A stretch of 64,000 nt of DNA from Patescibacteria group bacterium (GTDB taxonomy: Bacteria > Patescibacteriota > Patescibacteriia > Magasanikbacterales > GWA2-37-8): positions 142,337 to 206,336 of the forward strand of contig JAKLGL010000002.1 of NCBI GenBank assembly GCA_022710645.1, read 5' to 3'. Position numbers and translations under genes: made by a program. Shown in pieces: positions 12,545 to 63,920 of this stretch (position 1 is the first letter of the stretch; each line of letters opens with the position of its first letter). Below the pieces are notes generated by a model, which worked only from the letters and a program-made list of their open reading frames with translations, was not told where the DNA came from and did not search any database.

Positions 12545-12656
12545 GTTCAGGCGCTGGCCTACTTTTGCCTTTAGGGCTATCATCGGCGCCGAAGAGCTTA
12601 ACTGCCGAGTTCGGGATGGGATCGGGTGTGACCCCTTCGCTTAAAGCACCTGAACT
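12545..12656 (-). rRNA. rrf: 5S rRNA
   Basis: The reverse complement reads ...GGTGCTTTAAGCGAAGGGGTCACACCCGATCCCATCCCGAACTCGGCAGTTAAGCTCTTCGGCGCCGATGATAGCCC..., containing the conserved 5S CCCGAAC motif. Ends are approximate. Confidence 0.85.
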
Positions 12657-12694
12657 CTACACTTAAAATTTAAAAGAATATTTTGGGACAAGAA

Positions 12695-15625
<2,931 letters not shown>

Positions 15626-17074: not shown

Positions 17075-17150
17075 AAAAAGAACAGTAGTGGGGATGGAGA
17101 CCCGCCCGCCTCGGCTACGCCGAAGGCGTGTCGGGCGGGGACTCGAGCTC
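17075..17150 (-). terminator. GC-rich hairpin plus T-run after tRNA-Leu(TAG); it contains a 13-nt copy of the tRNA 3' end
   Basis: CCCGCCCGACACGCCTTCGGCGTAGCCGAGGCGGGCGGG then TCTCCATCCCCA then CTACTGTTCTTTTTTATTT. Confidence 0.5.
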
Positions 17151-22228: not shown

Positions 22229-22301
22229 GGTGTCCTTGGTATAACGGTTATTACGTCGGTTTGTGGTACCGACAAAACGGGTTCGACTCCCGTAGGACAC
22301 C
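22229..22301 (+). tRNA. tRNA-His, anticodon GTG, with an encoded G-1
   Basis: G-GTGTCCTTGGTATAACGGTTATTACGTCGGTTTGTGGTACCGACAAAACGGGTTCGACTCCCGTAGGACAC-C. Confidence 0.85.
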
Positions 22302-22313
22302 CTAATCAACAAA

Positions 22314-22343
22314 AATACTCCTATTTATAGGGGTATTTTTGTT
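22314..22343 (+). terminator. Terminator after tRNA-His
   Basis: ATACTCCTAT-ttat-AGGGGTAT followed by TTTTTGTTG. Confidence 0.55.
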
Positions 22344-22461
22344 GACAGCGTTCTTAAGGGAGTCGAACAGGGAAAGGGAGAAAACGGGAGTTTTCTCTTG
22401 ATGAGGAAAGGTATTGGAAAACCCGAAGGTTTTCCAAAGAGGAGGCCAAAGGCCGACGACG

Positions 22462-22548
22462 TTCGACTCCCGTAGGACATCCATCAACAACAGAAGCCCC
22501 ATGGAGGAGCGAACCGACTAATGTCGGTGAGCGACGTTCGACTCCCTA
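22462..22548 (+). repeat. Two partial copies of the tRNA-His T-arm and acceptor 3' strand, like att remnants
   Basis: GTTCGACTCCCGTAGGACATCC at about 22462-22483 and GTTCGACTCCCTAGGACAC at about 22528-22547; the genuine tRNA 3' end is GGTTCGACTCCCGTAGGACACC. Confidence 0.6.
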
Positions 22549-22609
22549 GGACACTTTTAAAAATTTTACATACTTTACATTTTCCCCTCTTTCACACTAT
22601 ACTTACTTT

Positions 22610-35120: not shown

Positions 35121-35160
35121 AATAAAAAATAGCTAAACAGTTAAGTTAGCTATTTTCTAG

Positions 35161-35178
35161 GTGCCCGGGGCGGGAATC
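35161..35178. repeat. Direct copy of the tRNA-Leu(TAA) 3' end: 18 bp, GTGCCCGGGGCGGGAATC
   Basis: Identical to 35347-35364, the tRNA acceptor and T-arm 3' strand. It bounds a 168-bp module at 35179-35346. Confidence 0.7.
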
Positions 35179-35346
35179 TGCTTTACCTCTCGTTTGTTTC
35201 CACAAACTCGGGCTAGCCACCGCCTCGCGATTTTATTCGCTCACAAGCTCATAAAATATCGCTCCGGCGTTCTCATCCCGACACGAGCAAAACTATTTGC
35301 TCGTTCCCCAGACAAAATAACACAGACCAAAAGGTCTGTGTTATTT
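35179..35346 (-). mobile_element. tRNA-linked non-coding module (hairpin, box1, box2) shared with the tRNA-Ala locus; a candidate miniature integrative element or tRNA-associated small RNA
   Basis: Box1 GGGATGAGAACGCCGGAGCGAT lies at 35258-35279 on the minus strand and is identical to 63770-63791. Box2 CGCGAGGCGGTGGCTAG matches 63821-63837 at 16 of 17 positions. Confidence 0.5.
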
Positions 35347-35347
35347 G

Positions 35348-35429
35348 TGCCCGGGGCGGGAATCGAACCCGCACGACCGAAGCCGCAGGATTTTAAGTCC
35401 TGTGCGTCTACCAATTCCGCCACCCGGGC
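35348..35429 (-). tRNA. tRNA-Leu, anticodon TAA
   Basis: GCCCGGGTGGCGGAATTGGTAGACGCACAGGACTTAAAATCCTGCGGCTTCGGTCGTGCGGGTTCGATTCCCGCCCCGGGCA. The listed + ORF 35161..35451 is spurious. Confidence 0.85.
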
Positions 35430-35545
35430 TTTGGGAAAAATTATAACATAAAAAATAAATAAATCAATAGTCTATAATAAAAGCTCCGGTATATCCAGAG
35501 CTTTTATTTTACAAAACTTCTGATTTTTCGAAAAAATCTATTCTT

Positions 35546-37055: not shown

Positions 37056-37745
37056 TTATTCAATTTTATCTGATTTTGTTAAATTACATTTAGCACAAAG
37101 CAACCGAATATTTTTAGCAGTCAAACTTGTTCCACCCCTTGAAAAGGGCAAGTCATGATCAAAATGTAAATTTTTCATTGATCCACATAATACACATTTT
37201 CCACTATCTCTTTTCCAAACTTCTTTTTTTACCTCACTAGGTATAAGCCTTGTATGTGCAAGATCAATATGTTCATTTGTAGTTAAATCTTGTTCATCTG
37301 ATAATTTTAAAGTAAATACAAAAACATTTCTCTTTCCGTCGTTTTTAATATTGTAATCAATTAAATCAAACAATCCTTTTAACGACCACACGCCAGTTAA
37401 AATTTTTTCATAAACCTTCACTGTTTCGGCTTTAGAAGTTTTATTTTTAAATTTTTTTACTGCTTCAATAAATTTTCCATTTTGGGTTAATGTGCCATTT
37501 CTGGTTTGTTGAGGTTGGTCAAATAATTTTGGATTCATTTCATAAGAAATTTTTGGCTCATCATGTCCTTCGTATTCAATAGTAATTCCATCATCAGAAA
37601 TACTATCGACATAAGGTGCATTTGATCTACGCGACATTAAAATAACAGAATATTTTGGATTCATTCTAAAGTTCATACCTCGTTGTAAGGTTTGGACATT
37701 CTCTATATCACACATTTCTCGATATGAGTATATTTGATCAATCAT
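37056..37745 (-). CDS. SRA(YDG)-HNH modification-dependent (Type IV-like) restriction endonuclease
   Basis: N-terminal SVILMSRRSNAPYVDSISDDGITIEYEGHD resembles the SRA core; C-terminal CVLCG...HFDHDLPFSRGG...NIRLLCAKCN is an HNH motif. Confidence 0.55.
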   Translation of the reverse strand: MIDQIYSYREMCDIENVQTLQRGMNFRMNPKYSVILMSRRSNAPYVDSISDDGITIEYEGHDEPKISYEMNPKLFDQPQQTRNGTLTQNGKFIEAVKKFKNKTSKAETVKVYEKILTGVWSLKGLFDLIDYNIKNDGKRNVFVFTLKLSDEQDLTTNEHIDLAHTRLIPSEVKKEVWKRDSGKCVLCGSMKNLHFDHDLPFSRGGTSLTAKNIRLLCAKCNLTKSDKIE

Positions 37746-62427: not shown

Positions 62428-63636
62428 ATGTCGCAAAATACTCAAAAAAATTGGTTTATTCTGGGTAACAATCCCGAACTATCCGCCGCTGAAATAAGCG
62501 CGGTTTTAAATTTGGACAAATTTGAAAAAAAAGATTTTCAACCACCTCTATTGGTTGTAGAAAAAAAATTTGATGCAAAAGAATTGATCAAAAAACTTGG
62601 TGGAACAATCAAAATTACCGAAGAAATCGGAGAAAATAAAAATCAACAAGAACTCGTTTCTCTAATTATCAACGATTTAAAAAAACAGAATGGCAAAATC
62701 CATTTTGGACTTAGCGATTATTCTTTTAAATCTTCAGAAAATTTATATCGTTTAAAAAAAATCGGTTTAGCAATAAAAAAAGAACTAAAACAACTAGGAC
62801 TATCGGTGCGTTTTGCTTTTAATAACGAGCAAATCCTTTCTTCGGTTTCCGTAGACAAAAACGATTTGATAAAAAAAGGTGGAGAATATATTTATATTTG
62901 GAAACCTTCGGGATTTTCCGTCGCCAAAACCGTTGCTGTTCAGCCTTTCGAAAGTTTCGGTTCTCGCGATTTCGGCCGTCCAGGAAGAGACAGTTTAAGC
63001 GGTATGTTGCCCCCAAAATTAGCCCTAATAATGCTAAATTTGGCTAAATCTACCCCCTCTGACACGCTTTTGGATCCTTTTTGCGGTTCCGGCACCATAA
63101 TCAACGAAGCCATTGCTCTGGGAATAAAAAATATAATTGGGACTGATAATTCAGAGCGCGCAATCAAAGACACTCAGCAAAATGTCGAATGGTTAAAATC
63201 CCAATCAATTATCAAAGACCAATTATCAACTTTTGATTCTTTTGTTTCTCCAGTAGAAAATCTCTCCAACCATTTGAAAAAAAACAGTATAGATAAAATT
63301 ATTACTGAACCGTATCTTGGTAAACCACTCAAAGGAAATGAAAAATATGAAACTCTCGTCCATCAAGCCAATGATTTGAAAATTTTATATTTACAAGCGT
63401 TTACCGAATTCAAGAAAATTTTAAAACCCGGCGGTACAGTCGTTTTTATTATCCCTTGTTTTAAACAAGGCAACAATTGGATTAGGATAGGTTTAGAAAA
63501 TGAATTGCTAAAAATTGGTTTTAAATCCAATCCCCTTTTAAAATTAAACGATAAAGAATACGGATATTTTCTTTATGCGCGGCCAGATCAGAAAGTCGGA
63601 CGAGAGATTTGGAAATTCGTAAATCTTGACAAATAG
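62428..63636 (+). CDS. SAM-dependent RNA methyltransferase, Trm11/N2-guanine-MTase-like
   Basis: LLDPFCGSGTIINEA (motif I) and ITEPYLGKPLKG (a DPPY-like motif IV). Confidence 0.6.
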   Translation: MSQNTQKNWFILGNNPELSAAEISAVLNLDKFEKKDFQPPLLVVEKKFDAKELIKKLGGTIKITEEIGENKNQQELVSLIINDLKKQNGKIHFGLSDYSFKSSENLYRLKKIGLAIKKELKQLGLSVRFAFNNEQILSSVSVDKNDLIKKGGEYIYIWKPSGFSVAKTVAVQPFESFGSRDFGRPGRDSLSGMLPPKLALIMLNLAKSTPSDTLLDPFCGSGTIINEAIALGIKNIIGTDNSERAIKDTQQNVEWLKSQSIIKDQLSTFDSFVSPVENLSNHLKKNSIDKIITEPYLGKPLKGNEKYETLVHQANDLKILYLQAFTEFKKILKPGGTVVFIIPCFKQGNNWIRIGLENELLKIGFKSNPLLKLNDKEYGYFLYARPDQKVGREIWKFVNLDK

Positions 63637-63668
63637 GCGAAAATTTGGCACAATACGCACACAAAAAA

Positions 63669-63742
63669 GGGCCTGTAGCGTAGCTGGCTAGCGCGTCTCC
63701 ATGGCATGGAGAAGGTCAGGGGTTCGAATCCCCTCAGGTCCA
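63669..63742 (+). tRNA. tRNA-Ala, anticodon GGC
   Basis: GGGCCTGTAGCGTAGCTGGCTAGCGCGTCTCCATGGCATGGAGAAGGTCAGGGGTTCGAATCCCCTCAGGTCCA. Confidence 0.8.
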
Positions 63743-63890
63743 CACAGAGTCTGCCGAAGGCAGACGACAGGGATGAGAACGCCGGAGCGATGTCGAGCGA
63801 TACATACGAGTGAGCGAGACCGCGAGGCGGTGGCCAGACAAAATTTTCGGAAGAAAATTTTAGTCGCGGCCGAATCCCCTCAGGTCCACA
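63743..63890 (+). mobile_element. tRNA-linked non-coding module ending in a 19-bp copy of the tRNA-Ala 3' end; shares box1 and box2 with the tRNA-Leu(TAA) locus
   Basis: Hairpin GTCTGCC-gaa-GGCAGAC, box1 GGGATGAGAACGCCGGAGCGAT (63770-63791), box2 CGCGAGGCGGTGGCCAG (63821-63837), then GAATCCCCTCAGGTCCACA (63872-63890) against the tRNA 3' end 63724-63742. Confidence 0.55.
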
Positions 63891-63920
63891 AAAAAAGAAT
63901 TCCTTTCGGAATTCTTTTAA
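63891..63920 (+). terminator. Terminator
   Basis: GAATTCC-tttc-GGAATTC followed by TTTT. Confidence 0.6.

Follow-up and report, generated by a model that had tools for sequence, protein, structure and literature searches.

Structured, protein-less modules behind tRNA genes of Patescibacteria: a candidate family of miniature integrative cassettes

In the stretch of Patescibacteria DNA analyzed here (64,000 nucleotides of contig JAKLGL010000002.1, hereafter the window), the genes for tRNA-Leu(taa) on the minus strand and tRNA-Ala(ggc) on the plus strand are each followed by a module of the same make-up. The initial annotation had described this as a hairpin, a first box (box1), a second box (box2) and a terminal copy of the tRNA 3' end, and we found every one of these items in its place at both loci. 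The features of the tRNA-Leu(taa) locus are as follows.

35467..35440, minus strand: promoter-like sequence TTGATT-16-TATAAT of tRNA-Leu(taa)
35429..35347, minus strand: tRNA-Leu(taa) (ARAGORN; Rfam tRNA match of 63.5 bits)
35363, minus strand: putative insertion point in the T-loop, after A58
35177..35362, minus strand: putative type-1 cassette of 186 nt, starting at tRNA nt 59, spanning the 3' end, hairpin and module, and closing with the junction ...GCAGA
35346..35315, minus strand: post-tRNA hairpin CACAGACC-tttt-GGTCTGTG, also given as AAATAACACAGACC-tttt-GGTCTGTGTTATTT
35306..35313, minus strand: P1 5' strand GTCTGGGG, complementary to CCCCGGGC of the tRNA 3' segment with two G·U pairs
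35282..35305, minus strand: hairpin H1 (P2), helix 1 of the family
35279..35258, minus strand: box1, GGGATGAGAACGCCGGAGCGAT, 22 nt
35230..35257, minus strand: variable P5 hairpin between the boxes
35229..35213, minus strand: box2, CGCGAGGCGGTGGCTAG
35179..35212, minus strand: P7 hairpin (GGAA loop) and P6 3' strand
35178..35161, minus strand: distal 18-nt copy GATTCCCGCCCCGGGCAC of tRNA nt 57-73 plus C, identical to 35364..35347
35124..35158, minus strand: AT-rich hairpin and T-run past the distal copy

Box1 is composed of the P3 5' strand GGGAT, the junction GAGAA, the P4 5' strand CGCC, a GGA loop and the start of P5, while box2 at this locus comprises the P5 3' strand CGC, a GAG loop, the P4 3' strand GGCG and the P6 5' strand GGCTAG. 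The GGGAT of box1 pairs with nt 59-63 of the terminal copy. Such pairing of the first 5-6 nt of box1, accompanied in many copies by that of a strand further upstream, had been overlooked in the initial annotation. The distal Leu copy pairs with both the P3 5' and the P1 5' strand, and we interpret it as the displaced resident 3' end; the P1 helix has 9 bp, a length matched in 4 of 200 shuffles. The hairpin directly behind the tRNA (its loop is tttt when read on the tRNA strand) forms a single long inverted repeat with the flanking tRNA 3' end and the P1 5' strand, and it received no terminator call in our scan because its T-run pairs with an A-run. This hairpin is similar to the native terminator of relatives with an empty site, which fits less well with its arrival as part of a cassette. 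The AT-rich hairpin past the distal copy, apparent in the sequence and unflagged by the scan because it holds fewer than three G-C pairs, is the likely end of the transcription unit, and the module is likely co-transcribed as a trailer of the tRNA.

The tRNA-Ala(ggc) locus has the corresponding features.

63626-63654, plus strand: promoter-like sequence TTGACA-17-CACAAT of tRNA-Ala(ggc)
63669..63743, plus strand: tRNA-Ala(ggc) (ARAGORN; Rfam tRNA match)
63728..63873, plus strand: putative type-1 cassette of 146 nt, starting at tRNA nt 59 and closing with the junction ...GGCCGA
63749..63765, plus strand: hairpin H1, GTCTGCC-gaa-GGCAGAC
63770..63791, plus strand: box1 (P3 5' strand GGGAT, GAGAA, P4 5' strand, GGA, start of P5)
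63792..63820, plus strand: variable P5 hairpin
63821..63837, plus strand: box2, ending in ...GGCCAG
63838..63871, plus strand: P7 hairpin AAAATTTTC-GGAA-GAAAATTTT and P6 3' strand
63871..63890, plus strand: distal 20-nt copy CGAATCCCCTCAGGTCCACA of tRNA nt 56-73 plus CA, identical to 63725-63744
63890..63918, plus strand: native terminator GAATTCC-tttc-GGAATTC with T-run

Neither a P1 strand nor an internal terminator is present in the Ala cassette. Even with three mismatches allowed, the window contains exactly two copies of box1 (0 of 100 shuffles), and box2 occurs twice against 0.07 occurrences expected. A downstream copy of the tRNA's own 3' end was found for four of the eight tRNAs of the window, including two with different downstream features.

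22230-22302, plus strand: tRNA-His
22303..22554, plus strand: arrangement downstream of tRNA-His, consisting of a hairpin, a type-2 module and two successive copies
22356-22368, plus strand: start of the type-2 module, AAGGGAGTCGAAC, the complement of the T-loop and T-stem
22461-22479, plus strand: copy 1 of the tRNA-His 3' end
22503-22514, plus strand: mini-module guide GGAGGAGCGAAC
22536-22554, plus strand: copy 2, degenerate
17088..17145, minus strand: decayed and displaced copy of the 3' end of tRNA-Leu(tag), in two pieces with a GC-rich hairpin of 39 nt between them
17145..17140, minus strand: first piece of this copy, CGAGTC
17139..17101, minus strand: the hairpin
17100..17088, minus strand: second piece, TCTCCATCCCCAC

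The His locus, which the initial annotation did not mention, has the same arrangement as the Leu(taa) and Ala loci around an unrelated module. The tRNA-Leu(tag) trailer had been taken for a weaker version of the module; its copy is real, but box1 and box2 are absent from 17088..17145, and the element is better described as a decayed, displaced copy.

A single scan returned about 35 further homologues with the same boxes, nearly all of them from Patescibacteria (CPR), and the proposal that the two modules belong to one family holds. The window modules are 146-186 nt long, and cassettes of the family span about 130-250 bp. A tRNA gene lies directly upstream of nearly all homologues and in the same orientation, and these tRNAs represent at least 11 amino-acid specificities. 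The terminal copy reproduces the T-loop-to-3'-end segment of the module's own tRNA (12-25 nt exact, beginning at C56/G57) at a fixed position 35-39 nt past box2. A full tRNA with such a partial direct repeat is present in about 30 loci, where the repeats measure 12-25 nt and at most about 105 nt. The closest relatives of a given module sit on other tRNAs. Arrays were observed at the window His locus and in L023, L068, L091 and L135, orphan and truncated copies were also found, and nested, truncated or orphan copies are common in the family as a whole. The P1 strand is missing from many members, among them the window Ala module, L097, L099 and L104.

Three other interpretations of family members were considered and rejected. 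The copy in L042 is not chimeric, as a single base distinguishes it from its tRNA and this base improves P3 pairing. The ATG within box1 (MRTPER...) does not open a conserved ORF, since most homologues have GGGAC or GGGAG at that place. Five pattern matches on viral contigs, which might have suggested viral carriage, are attributable to chance in high-GC DNA, and BLAST searches of phage and plasmid collections gave no matches to the modules.

The aligned family shares a fold of five helices, in which 96.5% of the cells are paired, compared with 77.6% in shuffles (0 of 500 reach the observed value) and 35-42% on sliding. Changes on both sides of a pair were found in 24 of the 32 pairs (152 cells in total), including 8 of 9 pairs in helix 1 (H1/P2) and 6 of 7 in helix 5 (the P7/P6 region). 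The initial annotation had offered a structured nucleic acid as its alternative to integration; these compensatory changes bear it out and are compatible with the integrative reading as well. Two strands of the module, P1 5' and P3 5', pair with the copy of the tRNA end and covary with tRNA identity. Five of the six P3 pairs are compensatory, the observed combinations being GGGAT/ATCCC, GAGAT/ATCTC, AGGAC/GTCCT, GGGGC/GCCCC, GGGAG/CTCCC and ACGAC/GTCGT, and P1 pairing extends up to 13 bp in a fixed register. With two of its strands paired to the tRNA 3' segment, the cassette would read that segment by base-pairing.

Occupancy of the tRNA slots varies among close relatives, and the empty sites that the integrative proposal predicts are present at both loci. 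In relatives with an identical tRNA-Leu(taa) body, the slot carries a type-1 module (the window, L136 and L135), a type-2 module unrelated to the box module (L140), or nothing (L137, L138 and L139). The different modules of L135 and L140 both lie upstream of the same truncated, older remnant. At tRNA-Ala(ggc), where synteny is conserved, the slot is occupied in the window, L142 and L145 and empty in L143 and L146, in which the native terminator directly follows the tRNA. The Ala module is kept across species with 4-5 double compensatory changes, while a flanking protein is only 73% identical; H1 has two compensatory pairs relative to L142; the Ala copy is perfect in L142, and the L145 contig ends before its copy. 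Such retention suggests that selection maintains a function at this fixed locus and is not what a transient parasite would show.

The boundaries of the unit were established from two paralogues in one genome, 90% identical to each other, that sit on tRNA-Asp (L023) and tRNA-Ser (L093). Their homology runs from the T-loop GTTCGA|A through the tRNA 3' end, the terminator and the module to ...GGCGA|, and the sequences beyond are locus-specific. The mobile unit would accordingly span the tRNA portion from nt 59 onward, the terminator and the module, placed after A58 so that the resident 3' end is displaced. In L023 the proximal 3' end and terminator derive from the donor, whereas the distal copy and its trailer belong to the resident locus; a dead pseudo-tRNA-Asp is fused to the donor-type 3' end. 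The P3 5' strands of the two paralogues differ by one base, which fits the new target. Att-type, Campbell-like insertions leave such a pattern, reconstructed here from the sequences of a single non-cognate event. At cognate sites the boundaries are unassignable because both repeats are identical, and those proposed for tRNA-Leu(taa) were for this reason drawn by analogy with the paralogue alignment. A further case that we had considered, 'variant B' (L128/L130) as a foreign cassette with a mismatched acceptor stem, was rejected, since a sister species (L141) has exactly that tRNA 3' end and terminator. An assembly chimera formed within the shared tRNA body of roughly 50 nt explains the case more simply, and we give the acceptor mismatch no weight as evidence.

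Because module kinship is decoupled from tRNA identity and paralogues occur on different tRNAs of the same genome, we argue for an integrative, mobile element, and the proposal of site-specific integration stands in this form. Its corollary, a target duplication made on insertion, does not: the repeat length varies from 12 to 105 nt, unlike the duplications made by a transposase, and the comparison of L023 with L093 identifies the tRNA-proximal copy as donor-derived and only the distal one as the resident 3' end. We infer mobility solely from these comparative patterns. The reading that we prefer, with a probability of roughly 0.55, is that the modules are non-autonomous, protein-less, structure-bearing integrative cassettes residing in tRNA T-loops, and that they form a family spread across the CPR. 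They look like an undescribed kind of miniature mobile element; neither the literature searched nor Rfam contains a description of them.

According to this cassette model, the unit would begin with the tRNA segment from nt 59 onward, in many cases accompanied by a hairpin or terminator, and continue with the P1 5' strand, H1, the P3 5' strand and a conserved core of P4-P7 ending in ...GA. It would insert after A58 of the T-loop, a CGA motif being common to both junctions, and would push the resident 3' end with its own trailer and terminator to the far side, where it becomes the terminal copy. Since the cassette carries a replacement 3' end, the tRNA gene stays intact. In the displaced copy, P3 5' pairs with nt 59-63 and P1 5' with the rest of the T-stem and the 3' strand of the acceptor stem; in addition, P1 5' can pair, via the hairpin, with the cassette's own copy. 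These guide strands would be re-fitted whenever a cassette comes to sit on a different tRNA, and repeated insertions would leave older, decaying units stacked distally. Insertion and excision may proceed by recombination within the T-loop or 3' segment, catalyzed by a trans-acting or host recombinase. The conserved fold would serve as the recognition scaffold, most likely as folded single-stranded DNA, and a free, possibly circular, form may exist.

The strand chemistry of the helices bears on this model and on its main competitor, in which the module is a host-functional trailer RNA. Such an RNA would be released by tRNA-processing enzymes and act as a structured small RNA. Its outer helices, P1 plus P3 with 12-15 bp, would mimic the acceptor/T-arm minihelix of the tRNA it follows, and a common factor would bind to the invariant core; it could serve in processing, in quality control or as a decoy for enzymes and toxins that attack tRNA 3' ends, and would spread by occasional duplication. 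The helices are 95-99% Watson-Crick. In the aligned helices G·U pairs are about as frequent as A·C mismatches (13 vs 11), and the 501 hairpin pairs include one of each, whereas the tRNA stems at the same loci show the wobble tolerance expected of RNA (20 vs 2). The absence of this tolerance hints at helices that form as folded DNA rather than RNA, and the statistic is compatible with, though no proof of, a fold of single-stranded DNA. However, other features fit RNA and speak against the DNA-level reading: the conserved internal loops are rich in purines when read on the tRNA-sense strand, the strand that has GGAA tetraloops and folds better in 23 of 25 cases, and some displaced copies (L136, L077 and L042) drift by G·U-compatible changes only. 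Pairing survives this drift: GGGC has become GGGT in L136 with a G·U pair in place, and the change of G62 to C in L042 improves P3. A trailer RNA would also account for the very strong covariation, for the tRNA promoter as the sole promoter, for the hairpin and T-run past the distal copy, and for the orthologous Ala module with its compensatory changes and perfect copy. Against it, P1 in L081 and L090 extends across the discriminator, the CCA and the trailer and so leaves no free NCCA end, and P1 is missing entirely from many members. Close relatives have no module, or an unrelated one, in the same slot, nested, truncated and orphan copies abound, and no Rfam family matches. On balance we consider a host-functional RNA somewhat unlikely.

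An extension of the cassette model, which we offer tentatively and consider unlikely, would make the modules a new, nucleic-acid-guided class of mobile elements. One recombinase acting in trans, perhaps that of the host, would be recruited by the conserved core, and the P3 and P1 strands, through pairing with the tRNA 3' segment, would programme which T-loop is invaded. Point mutations would then suffice to retarget an element of about 150 nt among many tRNAs, as the one-base change in P3 between the Ser and Asp paralogues may exemplify. A guided cassette of this kind might move as a small folded single-stranded circle.

Searches for a protein that could move the cassettes gave negative results throughout. 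The modules contain no ORF; no integrase, reverse transcriptase or transposase is found among the 20 larger ORFs of the window, nor an IntI-like ORF among those scanned. An HNH endonuclease is encoded in the window and has no link to the modules. Across the loci, no protein family recurs next to the modules, and no locus has an adjacent ORF for a recombinase or nuclease of the IS110, TnpB or IscB type. A search of the window, the loci, the phages and the plasmids returned no autonomous partner sharing terminal inverted repeats, and the only complementarity between cassette ends is that of the guide strands with the tRNA segment. GC skew has no sign change, and hence allows no origin call and no argument from replication strand.

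Comparison with known RNAs was likewise negative. Rfam 15, searched at the gathering threshold and at E-values up to 10, returned only the tRNAs and nothing else meaningful at the two loci; matches to tRNA-like families overlap the adjacent tRNA genes only and score well below gathering. The modules differ from tRNA-like RNAs (tmRNA TLD, bacterial Y RNA, viral TLS, mascRNA) in that the T-loop is replaced by the P4-P7 domain. A comparison by eye with known motifs (hammerhead, hairpin, twister, pistol and hatchet ribozymes, RNase P P4, sarcin-ricin loop, SRP, box C/D and H/ACA) revealed no consistent match. Group I introns, which occur in tRNA genes of Patescibacteria (PMC13011429), are likewise non-coding, structured insertions at tRNA genes of the same phylum. 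Those introns break up the tRNA at sites of the anticodon loop such as 35/36 and are recognized by group I models (PMC13011429), whereas our modules follow an intact tRNA, are shorter and have no group I match at either locus.

Another rival is a non-autonomous, SINE-like retroelement: the tRNA promoter would transcribe tRNA and module together, the tRNA 3' segment at the end of the trailer RNA would anneal to the nicked T-loop of a tRNA gene and prime reverse transcription there, and a trans-acting reverse transcriptase would recognize the conserved core. Several observations are in line with this, namely the expression borrowed from the tRNA promoter, the conserved structured domain adjoining a 3' tail homologous to the target, the one repeat boundary fixed at the T-loop with the other variable, the junctions inside the shared CGA and the lack of an element-encoded protein. 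We nevertheless regard it as very improbable. Neither the window nor the loci show a reverse transcriptase, Patescibacteria are reported to lack group II introns (PMC13011429), and helices restricted to Watson-Crick pairs are unexpected from an RNA intermediate. Moreover, the module of L023 is preceded by the 3' end and terminator of the donor tRNA, both of which would be missing from an RNA that begins at the RNase Z site. Hardly credible is the view of the modules as passive scars, that is, attL/attR-proximal leftovers of deleted integrase-encoding islands or prophages with the boxes as conserved att-arm sequence: partial tRNA repeats from the T-loop or anticodon loop are classic integration scars (L023 and L030 here) and decayed copies are common, but at more than 30 loci the module alone fills the space between the repeats, and an integrase is not found in the vicinity. 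The upkeep of five helices by compensatory change is not expected of a scar, nor is the presence of one module on at least 11 tRNA types.

Williams reportedly described, in 2002, the T-loop as one sublocation of tRNA-targeting integration. Typical of tRNA-targeting integrative elements are flanks of partial tRNA sequence and a distal shift of older insertions by newer ones (bioRxiv 10.1101/2020.12.28.424599). The cassettes resemble the tyrosine-integrase members of this group (islands, prophages and tycheposons) in the order of full tRNA, element and partial T-loop-to-3'-end repeat, in the restoration of the tRNA by the element, in the distal position of older insertions and in occupancy that varies among close relatives. 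Unlike them, a cassette measures only 130-250 bp, holds no gene and has a five-helix interior of which two strands pair and covary with the att repeat. In the known integrase systems each tRNA has its own integrase (bioRxiv 10.1101/2020.12.28.424599), and the occurrence of one homologous module family on at least 11 tRNA types, unlike such systems, speaks against the cassette reading.

The cassettes can also be compared with other small or structured elements. MITEs and att-flanked CIMEs are small, non-coding and trans-dependent, with several copies per genome, and the cassettes would share all of these traits. The MITE-like label used in the initial annotation nevertheless fails for want of short, fixed target-site duplications. 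Our searches returned no related autonomous element, the internal structure is strongly conserved, and the sole 'inverted repeat' is that of the guide strands and the tRNA segment. Integron attC sites and the attP of CTX phage are recombination sites that work as folded single-stranded DNA. The cassettes may have in common with them a compensatory structure with little wobble, one meaningful strand and stacking by a fixed site, and once folded they would restore the target segment as a duplex. This likeness at the DNA level draws on the equality of G·U and A·C only. In contrast to integrons, neither an integron integrase nor an attI is apparent, insertion is directed at the T-loop of a tRNA, and the cassettes have long invariant boxes without a cargo ORF. 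Guides are also carried by the IS110 bridge RNA, the omega RNAs of TnpB and IscB and, as EBS-IBS pairings, by group II introns. As in these RNAs, a conserved scaffold is combined with short, variable, target-complementary segments, followed by about 20 nt of flanking target; unlike them, the modules have no adjacent recombinase or nuclease gene and no Rfam match, and the displaced copy already engages their complementary segments in cis.

The genomes of CPR bacteria are tiny, with few recognized mobile elements. Half of the tRNAs in the window bear cassettes or their remains. If the cassette reading is true, the 3' ends of tRNAs in the CPR, and so in a very large share of bacterial diversity, would be continually replaced by gene-less cassettes, which would affect tRNA annotation and our view of tRNA evolution and genome plasticity. 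The cassettes would then represent the smallest known kind of site-specific integrative element, and a single conserved scaffold that addresses many tRNA targets through base-pairing could be useful to work on programmable recombination. A handle for finding the recombinase or host pathway involved would come from profiling protein families phylogenetically against the presence of modules. If instead the trailer-RNA reading is true, the modules would constitute a widespread, uncatalogued tRNA-linked structured RNA.

When re-read in tRNA orientation, both loci contain the parts listed in the initial annotation, namely a hairpin, box1, box2, and a terminal copy of the tRNA 3' end. We refer to these gene-less folded cassettes of approximately 130-250 bp as type-1 modules, and to the terminal repeat as the distal copy. 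The 22-nt box1 is identical in the two modules and has exactly two occurrences in 64 kb with three mismatches tolerated (0 of 100 shuffles), and box2 occurs twice in the window against 0.07 expected. The distal copies are exact repeats of 18 nt (Leu) and 20 nt (Ala), and four of the eight window tRNAs are followed by a repeat of their own tail. The relevant features are as follows:

35429..35347, minus strand: tRNA-Leu(taa), found by ARAGORN and Rfam
63669..63743, plus strand: tRNA-Ala(ggc), found by ARAGORN and Rfam
22303-22554, plus strand: tRNA-His array, in which an unrelated type-2 module is followed by one perfect copy, then by a mini-module and a second, degenerate copy
17088-17145, minus strand: tRNA-Leu(tag) copy split by a hairpin, with nothing else

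The PNPase gene adjoins tRNA-Leu(tag) in the window and likewise adjoins module-bearing tRNAs in L055, L072, and L099 (L-numbers denote loci fetched from other genomes or metagenomes). The window also has a 23S and 5S rRNA pair (12546-15621, minus strand) and no 16S rRNA gene within 64 kb; the latter appears to be unlinked from 23S-5S in this genome. At ~40.7-41.2 kb, gene orientation changes from almost all minus to mostly plus, and the GC skew shifts in magnitude from ~-0.15 to ~-0.05 with its sign unchanged; a replication origin is possible near this point.

A pattern scan over 185,579 species genomes, in which true copies were told from chance matches in high-GC genomes by full box similarity, yielded at least ~35 true module copies among the matches listed. 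Nearly all hosts among these matches are Patescibacteria/CPR (Magasanik-, Uhr-, Komeili-, Moranii-, and Vogel- groups, Paceibacterota, Minisyncoccia, Saccharibacteria); a few module-bearing bins are labelled Gammaproteobacteria, yet their GC content is CPR-like. At nearly every locus listed, a tRNA lies directly 5' of the module in the same orientation, with specificities for Ser, Pro, Gln, Leu, Asp, Val, Tyr, Gly, Asn, Ala, Glu, and Arg. The terminal copy matches the module's own tRNA exactly over 12-25 nt, begins in the T-loop, at C56/G57, and keeps a steady position 35-39 nt 3' of box2, so that the proposal of one tRNA-linked family was upheld. Downstream tail repeats of at least 12 nt accompany 26 of 56 tRNAs in CPR loci versus 0 of 18 in unrelated chance-match loci, a rough and biased control since the CPR loci were chosen for carrying a module.

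The nearest relative of almost every module is on a different tRNA, and module similarity is independent of tRNA identity; the two modules of the window are not mutual nearest relatives. The closest pair (90%) comprises L023 (Asp) and L093 (Ser) from two contigs of Ca. Komeilibacteria S5_K13. Their homology starts in the T-loop (GTTCGA/ATC...), spans the tRNA 3' end (real at Ser; at Asp decayed and fused to a 5'-truncated pseudo-tRNA-Asp), goes on through terminator, spacer, P1, hairpin H1, and core (100% identical over ~75 nt), and stops exactly at ...GGCGA, past which lie locus-specific Asp or Ser nt 59-76 and each locus's own trailer. The 5' strand of helix P3 is one base apart (GGGAT vs GAGAT), and each version fits its own target. 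These alignment boundaries define the unit as tRNA nt 59 to the 3' end, terminator, and module, inserted after A58; CGA stands at both of its junctions. The proximal copy would then be imported by the element, and the distal copy would be the displaced 3' end of the resident tRNA. A target duplication made on insertion, as originally postulated, is not supported, the L023/L093 pair indicating that the proximal copy is element-borne; on a cognate tRNA the two copies are identical, as at the window loci.

A search of metagenomes with the species-specific tRNA-Leu(taa) body as query gave seven loci that carry this tRNA body. The slot 3' of this tRNA is filled as follows:

Window and L136: type-1 module
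L135: type-1 module whose copy is interrupted by a GC-rich hairpin; beyond it lie a terminator and the truncated remnant of an older type-1 module
L140: type-2 module, unrelated to type 1 and with a terminator of its own; the remnant seen in L135 lies downstream here too
L137, L138, L139: empty, with a single tail copy and no box in the locus
L141: sister species, in which the acceptor stem differs

The distal copy of L136 has drifted at its end and retains pairing with P1, and the type-2 module of L140 starts with AAAGGGAATCGAAC, which is complementary to T-loop and T-stem. The tRNA-Ala locus has a conserved gene order (PilM/N ... methyltransferase, tRNA-Ala, YchF). Flanking proteins (73% identical), the identical tRNA, and orthologous modules are common to the window, L142, and L145; the distal copy is perfect in the window and L142, and the L145 contig stops short of it. 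In L143 and L146, a different tRNA-Ala(ggc) allele is followed directly by the terminator that follows the distal copy in occupied genomes. Empty sites in relatives, which the initial annotation had suggested looking for, thus exist at both tRNAs. In L146 (2890-3555), a 221-aa ORF with no family assigned lies between the tRNA-Ala terminator and ychF, and is missing from the other syntenic Ala loci. Two 'variant B' loci (L128 1806-2183, L130 1320-1706) have the promoter and tRNA-Leu(taa) 5' part of the window species and continue, from the T-arm on, with sequence of a sister species resembling L141 (3' end, terminator, type-2 module), which results in two acceptor-stem mismatches. They are probably chimeric assemblies of two species across ~50 nt of identical tRNA body, real non-cognate insertion being less simple, and the mismatch was set aside as evidence for foreign insertion.

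The type-2 module of the tRNA-His array opens with AAGGGAGTCGAAC, which is exactly complementary to the T-loop and the 3' strand of the T-stem. In its 5' part it is shared with the type-2 modules of L140 and L130 (both at tRNA-Leu(taa)), which are clearly homologous to each other. Stacked or truncated units occur in L023, L068, L091, and L135, orphans without an intact tRNA in L117, L121, and L039, and truncated copies in L115 and L006. Short GC-rich hairpins (CCCC...GGGG type) recurrently interrupt displaced copies within or just past the T-stem 3' strand (window 17088-17145, L097, L135, L030, L039); these hairpins may represent either another very small insertion element or a recurrent mode of copy inactivation. 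In L023 (2459-2700), an intact tRNA-Asp upstream of the unit described above is followed by an 85-nt trailer and a partial tRNA-Asp copy beginning in the anticodon loop, and L030 has a similar partial copy for tRNA-Ser(gct). These copies point to another type of small replacement of the tRNA 3' part, acting at an anticodon-loop sublocation, which may have rescued the L023 tRNA-Asp gene. L068 (6330-6960) has a type-1 module on a tRNA whose halves stand ~250 nt apart, probably owing to a group I intron, and further along a miniature module (tagGGATGAGAAg...ATCCTTCCCGGCCCA) with an antisense T-arm fragment. Group I introns occur in Patescibacteria tRNAs (PMC13011429) and are distinct from the modules.

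Folding of the two window modules gave z = -8.8 and -4.5 against shuffled sequence, and Rfam returned no family match to them even at E = 10. In both, the boxes pair with each other (box1 CGCC, box2 GGCG) across an internal GGA/GAG loop and enclose a variable hairpin, a hairpin with a GGAA loop stands 3' of box2, and the first five bases of box1 pair with AUYCCC of the terminal copy. In an alignment of 25 copies, two-sided changes maintain pairing at 24 of the 32 predicted pairs, bearing out a structured nucleic acid. Paired cells reach 96.5%, versus 77.6% in column shuffles (0 of 500 as high), and fall to 35-42% with partners slid; the aligned helices have 152 cells with two-sided changes versus 13 with one-sided changes. 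Stem substitutions between orthologous modules are mostly double compensatory (5, 4, 3, and 12 pairs), which shows purifying selection on the fold even where the locus is fixed. In the Ala-module orthologue of L142 (2875-2960), the P6 stem changes from GGCC/GGCC to GACC/GACC. This leaves the tRNA-sense strand with two A·C mismatches, which on the other strand would be two G·T wobbles.

In helix P3, the opening 5-6 nt of box1 pair with nt 59-63 of the tRNA-end copy, and the two strands change together from one tRNA identity to another (GGGAT/ATCCC, GAGAT/ATCTC, AGGAC/GTCCT, GGGGC/GCCCC, GGGAG/CTCCC, ACGAC/GTCGT). Roughly half to two-thirds of members also have, immediately upstream of H1, a P1 5' strand that pairs in constant register with the remaining T-stem and acceptor 3' strand (13 bp in L081, 11 in L090, 10 in L109, 9 in the window Leu copy). 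At several loci the P1 5' strand forms the distal arm of a long inverted repeat that has the post-tRNA hairpin at its centre (a perfect 40-nt palindrome in L090), and it can therefore pair equally with the real tRNA 3' end. In L034, L060, L039, L030, and L042, the place of this hairpin between tRNA and P1 strand is taken by a conserved linker box, GAA(T)GAACGAAGTGAATGA, which in L030 also occurs within a hairpin inside the copy.

The main alternative, a host-functional tRNA-trailer RNA, is rather unlikely in our view. A promoter-like site is present at each tRNA and none at the modules, and a hairpin with a T-run lies 3' of the distal copy, so that any module RNA would be a tRNA trailer; the long retention of the module at the Ala locus favours this alternative. 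The pair counts bear on the same question:

Base pairs in modules and in tRNA stems of the same loci
Module, aligned helices: 791 pairs, 13 G·U, 11 A·C
Module, variable hairpins: 501 pairs, 1 G·U, 1 A·C
tRNA stems: 276 pairs, 20 G·U, 2 A·C

Module helices are almost purely Watson-Crick, which, together with the rarity of one-sided changes, is unlike the usual evolution of structured RNA and points to a possible DNA-level constraint (e.g. a folded single strand) or repeated copy renewal. The tRNA-sense strand, however, has purine-rich conserved internal loops and GGAA tetraloops and is the better folder in 23 of 25 modules, which points in the opposite direction.

No integrase, transposase, or RT was found among the 20 larger ORFs of the window, no candidate enzyme is encoded in or beside the modules, no protein family recurs near modules at 32 loci, and phage, plasmid, and viral collections gave no match to them. 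The catalysing enzyme would thus act in trans or belong to host recombination. A free-standing HNH/EndoVII-like endonuclease gene (37056-37745, minus strand), which is also conserved in two near-identical contigs (L126, L127), adjoins genes for NrdD (anaerobic ribonucleotide reductase) and a radical-SAM activase, with no evident link to the modules.

The initial observation is confirmed and extended. The MITE label is not supported, as the modules lack a short fixed TSD and no autonomous partner was found in the window, at the other loci, or in phage and plasmid collections. In function alone, and with no membership implied, the modules can be compared with att sites that work as folded single strands (integron attC, CTX phage) and with element RNAs that carry a guide (IS110 bridge RNA, omega RNA, group II EBS/IBS). 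Known tRNA-targeting integrative elements have partial-tRNA flanks (one from the element, one from the host), distal older units, and presence/absence between close relatives (bioRxiv 10.1101/2020.12.28.424599). The modules are alike in all three respects; in contrast to those elements, which have one integrase per tRNA, they have none, are approximately a hundred-fold smaller, and contain a conserved fold with strands pairing with the att repeat. We found no published account of these modules in the literature searched. With a probability of roughly 55%, we regard them as one CPR-wide family of integrative cassettes, structured and without any encoded protein, which exchange the 3' ends of tRNAs at the T-loop and recognise their target through base-pairing, a reading compatible with a tRNA-trailer RNA.
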